Virus record (IMG/VR): IMGVR_UViG_2778261162_000001
Location: 1-30,495 of that record
From: a virus
Lineage: Duplodnaviria; Heunggongvirae; Uroviricota; Caudoviricetes
Reading direction: 5' to 3' (one strand)
DNA: 30,495 bases
The notes under the pieces are model-generated. The model searched no databases. It was not told the DNA's origin and saw only the letters and a program-made list of their open reading frames with translations. Below are positions 13,327 to 13,817 of this stretch, one piece after another (positions within the stretch are counted from its first letter, which is position 1; every line of letters begins with the position of its first letter). The position numbers were made by a program, and so were the translations under genes.

Positions 13327-13570
13327 GCTCTACCCCTTCATTGAGGGGATTTGCTCTATTTAATTAGGAATAAGGTCGATTACTGATAGAACAAATCCAG
13401 GCTACTGTGTTTAGTAATCAGATTTGTTCGTGACCGATATGCACGGGCAAAACGGCATGAGGTTGTTAGCGCAACCTCCTGCCACCCGCTTTCACGAAGG
13501 TCATGTGTAGAAGGCCGCAGCATAACTATCACTGATGAATTCAGGATAGCCAGTGGCTACGGCTCAGTTA

Positions 13571-13646
13571 TGGTGCTGGTTAACGGACTTGAACCGCTAC
13601 CCATTCGCTTACAAGGCGACTGCTCTACCATTGGAGCTAAACCAGT
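13571..13646 (-). tRNA. tRNA-Thr-like gene (anticodon UGU), 76 nt with encoded CCA
   Basis: Manual cloverleaf fold: D-arm GCTC/GAGC with GG in loop, anticodon stem-loop with CTTGTAA loop, 5 nt variable loop, T-arm AGCGG-TTCAAGT-CCGTT, acceptor ending CAGCACCA; position 1:72 is an A-C mismatch. Confidence 0.6.
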
Positions 13647-13651
13647 ATATT

Positions 13652-13726
13652 TGGCGGGACAGCGTGGACTCGAACCACGATAAGAAGGTTAACTGCCTTC
13701 CGTAATGACCTTTATACGACTGACCC
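13652..13726 (-). tRNA. tRNA-like gene, possibly tRNA-Asn(GUU)-like, non-canonical (A at position 33, acceptor-stem mismatch)
   Basis: T-arm CGTGG-TTCGAGT-CCACG and 3' CTGTCCCGCCA, anticodon stem GAAGG/CCTTC with loop CAGTTAA; the D-arm is weak; 5 nt from the neighbouring tRNA. Confidence 0.4.
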
Positions 13727-13817
13727 AAATAAAAAAAGCCACCGTTGCAACTTAAGAGTCACTAACGGCAGCTTATGCGAATAGTGTTGCTCATTTGCTC
13801 AATGATGTCAACACGTT

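Follow-up and report, generated by a model that had tools for sequence, protein, structure and literature searches.

Two private substitutions in a phage-21-type tRNA-Asn/tRNA-Thr pair of an Escherichia coli prophage

Two tRNA genes between Q and the lysis genes

We analysed positions 1 to 30,495 of the virus record IMGVR_UViG_2778261162_000001 (30,495 nt, hereafter the window). The original prediction had placed two tRNA genes, 5 nt apart on the late strand and both with non-canonical bases, between the late antiterminator gene Q and the lysis genes, and ARAGORN and Rfam agreed on this arrangement. These were the only tRNA genes that ARAGORN called in the whole window; no tRNA-Lys was found. 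The segment under study contains the following features.

13652-13726, minus strand: tRNA-Asn(GUU), CCA encoded, G73 (ARAGORN; Rfam RF00005)
13647-13651, minus strand: tRNA-Asn/tRNA-Thr spacer AAUAU, 5 nt (AAUAU or AACAU among the family variants)
13571-13646, minus strand: tRNA-Thr(UGU), CCA encoded, A73 (ARAGORN; Rfam RF00005)
13327-13570, minus strand: lambda-type late leader reaching from tRNA-Thr to the holin gene, 244 nt (homology, folding)

In the covariance-model scan that had been proposed as a check, both genes exceeded the RF00005 gathering score of 29, with 46.6 bits for tRNA-Asn and 55.3 bits for tRNA-Thr. Each has the 7-nt anticodon loop, the T-loop GTTCRA, and the above-threshold cloverleaf of an elongator tRNA. 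To judge from the many phage records that annotate the pair as tRNA genes, and from the compensatory changes that back the fold, the cloverleaves are not due to chance.

According to the Rfam alignment, the anticodon loop of tRNA-Asn reads CAGUUAA on a 5-bp stem, which puts A at position 33 (window position 13694) instead of U. This tRNA also has the mismatches U4-U69 (window positions 13723/13659) and U13-U22, and its 1-72 pair is G1-C72. tRNA-Thr retains U33 and shows the mismatches A1-C72 (window positions 13646/13575) and G27-A43. A33, the acceptor-stem mismatch in tRNA-Asn, and A1-C72 had all been pointed out in the original prediction, and all three are present in this alignment. A corrected folding with U33 or closed stems was ruled out, with ARAGORN and Rfam agreeing on the CAGUUAA loop and on A1-C72. 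Alignments with relatives indicated that nothing had been misfolded; the canonical bases of the relatives are simply substituted.

A known tRNA module of lambdoid and P22-like prophages

Sequence comparison identified the two genes as the already known phage-21/Sf6-type tRNA-Asn/tRNA-Thr pair of lambdoid and P22-like prophages. A megablast search of the region against phage records returned 175 matches, and Sf6, SPN9CC, BTP1, vB_SosS_Oslo, and others annotate the pair as tRNA-Asn/tRNA-Thr. In the Sf6 record, the tRNA note reads 'similar to phage 21', and pR', qut, and tR' are annotated as well. The window pair was 98.1% identical to those of phage 21 and Sf6 over 156 nt, with 98-99% identity across the close phages. 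The region was held by 833 of 5,426 complete E. coli genomes.

The surroundings agree with those of the known module: the pair lies 3' of a Q21-type gene, pR', and tR', and 5' of a lysis cassette, and it shares the mismatches of the family. With phage 21, Sf6, and BTP1 (records AJ237660, AF547987, and LT714109), the window has in common the order Q21-type gene, pR', tR', tRNA-Asn, 5-nt spacer, and tRNA-Thr, as well as the anticodons, the encoded CCA, and the mismatches U4-U69, U13-U22, and G27-A43. Among the family copies, the variable spacer column (alignment column 78) is C in 54 and T in 52. Only the window copy carries U33A in tRNA-Asn and G1A in tRNA-Thr. A further difference lies downstream, where the window has a lambda-type leader and a class II holin, whereas in phage 21 S21 follows after ~117 nt.

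Compensatory pairs were found in the acceptor and anticodon stems of both genes, at 6:67, 7:66, and 28:42 in tRNA-Asn and at eight pairs in tRNA-Thr. Paired cells made up 91.5% for tRNA-Asn and 94.2% for tRNA-Thr, as against 20-55% with the partners slid. The compensatory changes in both cloverleaves indicate that the Asn/Thr family is under tRNA-like constraint. Three of the mismatches seen in the window, U4-U69 and U13-U22 in tRNA-Asn and G27-A43 in tRNA-Thr, occur in essentially all of ~106 close copies. By this comparison, they are normal family traits and not signs of decay.

Variants of the module were seen in other phages. The Klebsiella phages ST16-OXA48phi5.2 and ST101-KPC2phi6.1 (L004, L007 1201-1520) have a post-Q array of the type Asn(GUU)-Phe(GAA)-Thr(UGU)-Arg(UCU), whose Asn and Thr members are homologues of the phage 21 pair with compensatory changes in their stems. 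The 'tRNA-Thr' of JLK-2012-type phages (L006 1281-1356; L111; related IMG/VR contigs) is a chimera, of which the first ~26 nt are of phage-21 type. The other 51 nt match E. coli thrU without a difference in L111, where the CUG anticodon stem of the host is retained. JLK-2012 itself has a near-identical thrU-like part with a damaged anticodon stem, and ARAGORN made no call there. The chimera looks as though the phage tRNA had recombined with its host counterpart. ST64T-type phages (L005 1276-1356; similar IMG/VR contigs) have kept tRNA-Asn, and their Thr site holds a degenerate tRNA-like remnant ending in ACCAACCA, for which ARAGORN made no call. tRNA-Asn stands alone in seven contigs.

The segment between tRNA-Thr and the holin gene

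Stx phages of the 933W type carry ileZ-argN-argO, followed by stxAB, downstream of Q. They share with the window tRNA genes at the head of a Q-dependent late transcript, in a region where morons insert. The window differs from them in having only the Asn and Thr isoacceptors, with neither stx genes nor any insert remnant. The original prediction had regarded the non-coding DNA between the tRNAs and the holin as an empty toxin-insertion slot. Its statement that toxin genes are lacking agrees with the list of open reading frames (ORFs), in which we found no toxin-like product and no credible gene in 13327-13570. A 50-aa ORF on the late strand (13380-13532) was treated as spurious, since the homologous stretch of the lambda record is unannotated and the region behaves as structured RNA.

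The 244-nt segment was 95% identical to positions 44945-45181 of the lambda record NC_001416, immediately upstream of S; that record has no annotation over 44945-45181. The leader occurs in ~72 of ~120 related contigs, and its conservation equals that of the tRNAs. The holin gene of the window was matched in only 15 of the contigs with the leader, which indicates that the leader precedes different holin genes. Phage-21-type copies share only its first ~60 nt, after which S21 follows. Folding of the leader RNA gave -89 kcal/mol, compared with -63 kcal/mol for shuffled controls (z = -5.9), and a consensus structure with five compensatory pairs was obtained across lambda, Sf6, P22, SE16, and an Enterobacter phage. 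The lambda identity, the conservation ahead of different holins, and the RNA structure together show that the segment is the usual late leader rather than an insertion site left empty.

A vacated toxin site and a third tRNA remnant were both considered for the 244 nt and ruled out, as the segment is the lambda leader and an E-value scan against Rfam gave no match in it, detecting only the two tRNAs. The idea of a slot is correct insofar as the late-leader region hosts extra tRNAs and morons in other lambdoid phages, but the segment bears no trace of an excised insert. In the JLK-2012-type phages, the insertions at this region comprise an additional tRNA-Gly, then tciAB and a large ORF, which we take to encode a NanS-p-like esterase.

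The leader contains two GAACAAAUC-like copies, one upstream and one immediately in front of the stem-loop that precedes the start codon, and an invariant GGAUUUGUUC can pair with the one or the other. This GGAUUUGUUC/GAACAAAUC pairing suggests that the leader may form alternative structures.

U33A and G1A as substitutions private to one lineage

By alignment, U33A in tRNA-Asn and G1A in tRNA-Thr are substitutions private to one E. coli prophage lineage located beside a torI-cscB junction. Comparison with the tRNAs of related prophages, another of the checks proposed, showed U33 in tRNA-Asn and G1-C72 in tRNA-Thr for every named relative; the eight other sequences in the Thr alignment all have G1-C72. 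When IMG/VR was scanned with N at position 33, 124 copies had T and 1 had A. The exact A33 pattern gave zero matches in 185,579 species-representative genomes and zero in the metagenome collection. A widespread A33 variant was ruled out by the IMG/VR count and by these empty exact-match scans. Over 241 positions, the best complete E. coli genomes and the window showed exactly two differences. Relative to phage 21 and Sf6, the two substitutions lower the Rfam score by 8.7 bits for tRNA-Asn (from 55.3 to 46.6) and by 6.2 bits for tRNA-Thr (from 61.5 to 55.3).

The sole other A33 copy was found in IMGVR_UViG_2778261529_000002, which equals window positions 5312-15464 except for one base at 14610. 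Being near-identical to the window, it is a second record of the same prophage lineage. This record bears on whether the odd bases are sequencing or assembly errors in a prophage whose true sequence is canonical. Both bases are singletons at otherwise invariant positions, as such errors would be, but both recur in the second record. As there is one further difference between that record and the window in 10,153 nt, it is not simply the same file, although the two may derive from the same isolate or from the same reads. The region is not of low complexity, and the mutational spectrum of the remaining private substitutions is a normal one. We therefore regard errors as an extremely unlikely source of the two bases.

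Two options had been offered in the original prediction, altered decoding and decaying copies. The first found no support, since neither the anticodons nor the length of the loop is changed and the variant has failed to spread. The second is apt for A33 and A1, which are private against more than 120 canonical relatives, and misplaced for U4-U69, which is family-wide. Non-canonical tRNA features found in a single copy should be compared with relatives before they are read as biology. The significance of the two bases is small: the module has long been annotated, and they are the private mutations of one lineage.

Mutation background of the window

We counted as private any window base that differed from all of at least 20 aligned relatives. 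With the mosaic edge at 12442-12490 and the tRNAs left out of the rate, 10 private substitutions were found in ~3.5 kb, corresponding to 0.29%. Private sites lie at window positions 12864, 13852, 14597, 14645, 15088, 15406, 15949, 16052, and 16302, as compared with 20-114 relatives, and also at 14610, the one site at which the near-identical IMG/VR contig departs from the window. G:C>A:T changes accounted for 8 of 12 when those in the tRNAs were counted. Seven of the nine coding changes were nonsynonymous, namely R>L in Q, A>V and T>M in NinG, S>L in the Dam-like methylase, V>I in NinB, I>M in the endolysin, and V>I in a small ORF. This spectrum looks like unselected mutation accumulation.

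At this rate, 0.45 changes are predicted per 156 nt, and the probability of two or more is ~0.08; two substitutions within the 156 nt of the tRNA pair are therefore not surprising. Singleton changes in the pair were present in 17 of 104 other contigs, and 7 of these break a stem pair. Such frequent damaged copies are in keeping with tRNA genes that stay silent in the lysogen and come under selection only in lytic growth; that about one module copy in six has a singleton change fits weak selection on late-expressed tRNAs during lysogeny. U33A and G1A would have arisen, unselected, while the prophage was silent.

Expected effects of U33A and G1A

The identity elements of bacterial threonyl-tRNA synthetase (ThrRS) are G1-C72, C2-G71, G4-C69, G5-C68, G35, and U36, and those of asparaginyl-tRNA synthetase (AsnRS) are G73, G34, U35, U36, and A37 (PMC9976931). 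Five of the six ThrRS elements are present in the window tRNA-Thr, the lost one being G1-C72, and every AsnRS element is intact in the window tRNA-Asn. G1A breaks the ThrRS identity pair G1-C72 and opens the end of the acceptor stem. U33A abolishes the U-turn uridine and, with it, the U33G34U35 motif, which is required by TGT, the queuosine-inserting enzyme (PMC6140457).

We also weighed whether A33, and perhaps A1, could be adaptive, in that tRNA-Asn would become invisible to a nuclease of the colicin E5 type (Y33-G34-U35), or to another loop-reading nuclease, and would still decode AAC/AAU. Colicin E5 absolutely requires YGU, and a minihelix with U changed to A at the position equivalent to 33 was barely cleaved, its cleavage being 'extremely diminished' (PMC1635277). 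Phage tRNAs have been proposed, and partly shown, to evade nucleases through changes in the anticodon arm (PMC10264068; PMC12445682; PMC12409363), and the intact AsnRS identity elements of the window allele are compatible with such a role. The distribution of the allele speaks against it: A33 was found in 1 of 125 IMG/VR copies, in none of the 833 E. coli genomes, and nowhere in the species-representative or metagenome scans. As A33 has neither spread nor recurred in spite of the mobility of the module, we rated the adaptive explanation low. Moreover, the U-turn depends on the conserved U33, and a tRNA that has lost it should bind the ribosome less well (PMC1635277), while the neighbouring G1A strikes the ThrRS identity pair with no obvious benefit. 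The private, mostly nonsynonymous changes in the background point to drift. An adaptive A33 is therefore very unlikely. We consider it most improbable that the U33A tRNA-Asn is a functional escape variant, one that decodes AAC/AAU without the canonical U-turn and evades both queuosine insertion and colicin E5-type nucleases. If it were, the allele would represent a natural working A33 elongator tRNA selected in a phage-nuclease conflict.

Role of the module

Protection against the P2 OLD nuclease is conferred by phage tRNA-Thr(UGU) genes, among which the one of phage 21 is named explicitly, and the phage 21 tRNA-Thr shows a shortened anticodon stem together with the changes C28U/G42A (PMC12445682). 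In our alignment with E. coli thrU, the family has G27-A43 in place of the host A27-U43, and U28-A42 in place of the host C28-G42. It combines the UGU anticodon with the shortened anticodon stem and a CNG motif altered relative to thrU, which are the sequence features of resistance to P2 OLD. Since G27-A43 and U28-A42 match the published resistance features, the 27-43 'mismatch' is best read as a functional trait. The anticodon arm of the window tRNA-Thr is identical to that of tRNA-Thr21, the phage 21 tRNA of that study (PMC12445682). The window copy differs in having A1-C72 instead of the ThrRS identity pair G1-C72, so its charging, and hence the rescue, may be reduced.

[quoted passage not shown] It cuts between positions 40 and 41, beside U36AAUC, with the motif U36AAUC/A41 (the slash marks the cut), and in the T5 tRNA-Lys, which is resistant, positions 39 and 41 are changed (PMC12409363). 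The corresponding sequences of the family are U36AAG39C/G41 in tRNA-Thr and U36AAC39C/U41 in tRNA-Asn, as compared with UAAUC/A (Thr) and UAAUC/C (Asn) in the host. The module thus resembles the T5 Lys/Thr/Asn tRNAs that neutralise AriB (PMC12409363, PMC11464382) in its Thr(UGU) and Asn(GUU) isoacceptors and in its departures from the host tRNAs at positions 39 and 41, on either side of the 40/41 cleavage site. In contrast to the module, the T5 tRNAs belong to a large set in a virulent phage; the sequences are different, and the module lacks tRNA-Lys, the main AriB target. Asn(GUU) and Thr(UGU) are two of the three main AriB targets, and the pair includes the main P2 OLD target. Given this match of isoacceptors, the very common phage-21-type module is a good candidate for a means by which temperate phages counter both of these Toprim nucleases.

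Classical codon supplementation in the late burst, serving Asn codons and the rarer ACA with no nuclease evasion, would be another role for the module. The late genes of the window use ACA for 18% of their Thr codons (11.1 per 1000) and Asn codons at 47 per 1000, both somewhat above the E. coli genome averages. The module stands at the head of the late transcript, and E. coli has no UGU tRNA besides thrU (PMC12445682). However, neither AAC nor AAU is a rare codon, four asn genes are present in the host, and the enrichment is modest. The phage tRNAs differ greatly from those of the host, with differences at the positions that decide sensitivity to nucleases, and the phage 21 tRNA-Thr has been shown to protect from P2 OLD (PMC12445682). 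Codon supplementation without nuclease evasion is therefore unlikely; as a contributing function, it is the weaker alternative and is compatible with a role in nuclease evasion.

With these results in hand, we consider it very probable that the tRNAs of the family work and most likely serve to replace host tRNAs destroyed by nucleases, that U33A and G1A in the window are unselected and weaken both tRNAs, and that the 244-nt segment is the lambda leader. Several points weigh against this reading. Both tRNAs are altered in one lineage, each at a functionally prominent position, and these are the only differences over 241 nt. The probability of ~0.08 is not overwhelming, and it comes from one 3.5-kb sample with relatives picked for carrying the tRNA. 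U33A is expected to block cleavage of the colicin E5 type (PMC1635277), so a benefit is possible. The window shows no sign that the prophage is defective. We infer the weakening of the tRNAs from general knowledge of tRNAs, and from the sequences that the module may blunt PARIS AriB.

Genomic context

The genes and signals on either side of the tRNA pair and its leader are the following.

13818-14363, minus strand: Q21-type late antiterminator gene (Pfam PF06530 Phage_antitermQ, E = 1e-24)
13777-13812, minus strand: predicted pR' late promoter region, with the -35 element TTGACA at 13805-13810 (alignment with phage 21 AJ237660, Sf6, and BTP1)
13727-13776, minus strand: short pR' leader (qut region, phage 21 'aRNA') and tR' intrinsic terminator (homology, folding)
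12211-13326, minus strand: lysis cassette (Pfam Phage_holin_2_3, Phage_lysozyme, Phage_lysis; ORF list)
13123-13326, minus strand: class II (HP1-type) holin (Pfam)
12648-13151, minus strand: endolysin (Pfam)
12211-12663, minus strand: Rz with an embedded Rz1-like frame (Pfam, ORF list)

The records of phage 21, Sf6, and BTP1 annotate Q at the positions homologous to the Q gene of the window. The ORF is listed from a GTG; the real start is probably an internal ATG (MGIRELN...). The segment at 13777-13812 is nearly identical to the late promoter of phage 21, a promoter being annotated in both the phage 21 and the Sf6 records, and by this homology it is the predicted pR'. Over 13727-13776, the terminator is identical to its phage 21 counterpart; the Sf6 record labels the region tR', and that of phage 21 labels it aRNA. 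The region folds with -21.5 kcal/mol (z = -3.2) into a hairpin at 13738-13772, followed by a U-run at 13731-13737, and tRNA-Asn begins 4 nt past the U-run. The loop of tR' is longer than the limit of a simple terminator scan, and the terminator was recovered by folding and homology. From its position and homology, the tRNA pair would be transcribed only within the Q-antiterminated late transcript, from which host tRNA-processing enzymes would excise the tRNAs with their encoded CCA.

At the right end of the window (28172-30495), an ORF for a TorI-like excisionase (28172-28372) is followed after ~530 nt by cscB (sucrose permease type, 28902-30149) and then by the end of a cscK-like kinase gene. 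Neither argW nor another tRNA gene was detected in 28172-30495. The torI-cscB junction was found in 368 complete E. coli genomes, which identifies the element in the window as a resident E. coli prophage. A seemingly missing integrase, suspected because cscB follows the excisionase-like gene, was dropped as a sign of decay because this junction is common in E. coli. In KplE1/Sf6-type prophages, int presumably lies at the opposite end. A 180-aa ORF on the plus strand, opposite to the late genes (11058-11600), lies between the gene for the small terminase subunit and the lysis cassette; no Pfam family matched it, and it could be a moron or an accessory gene.

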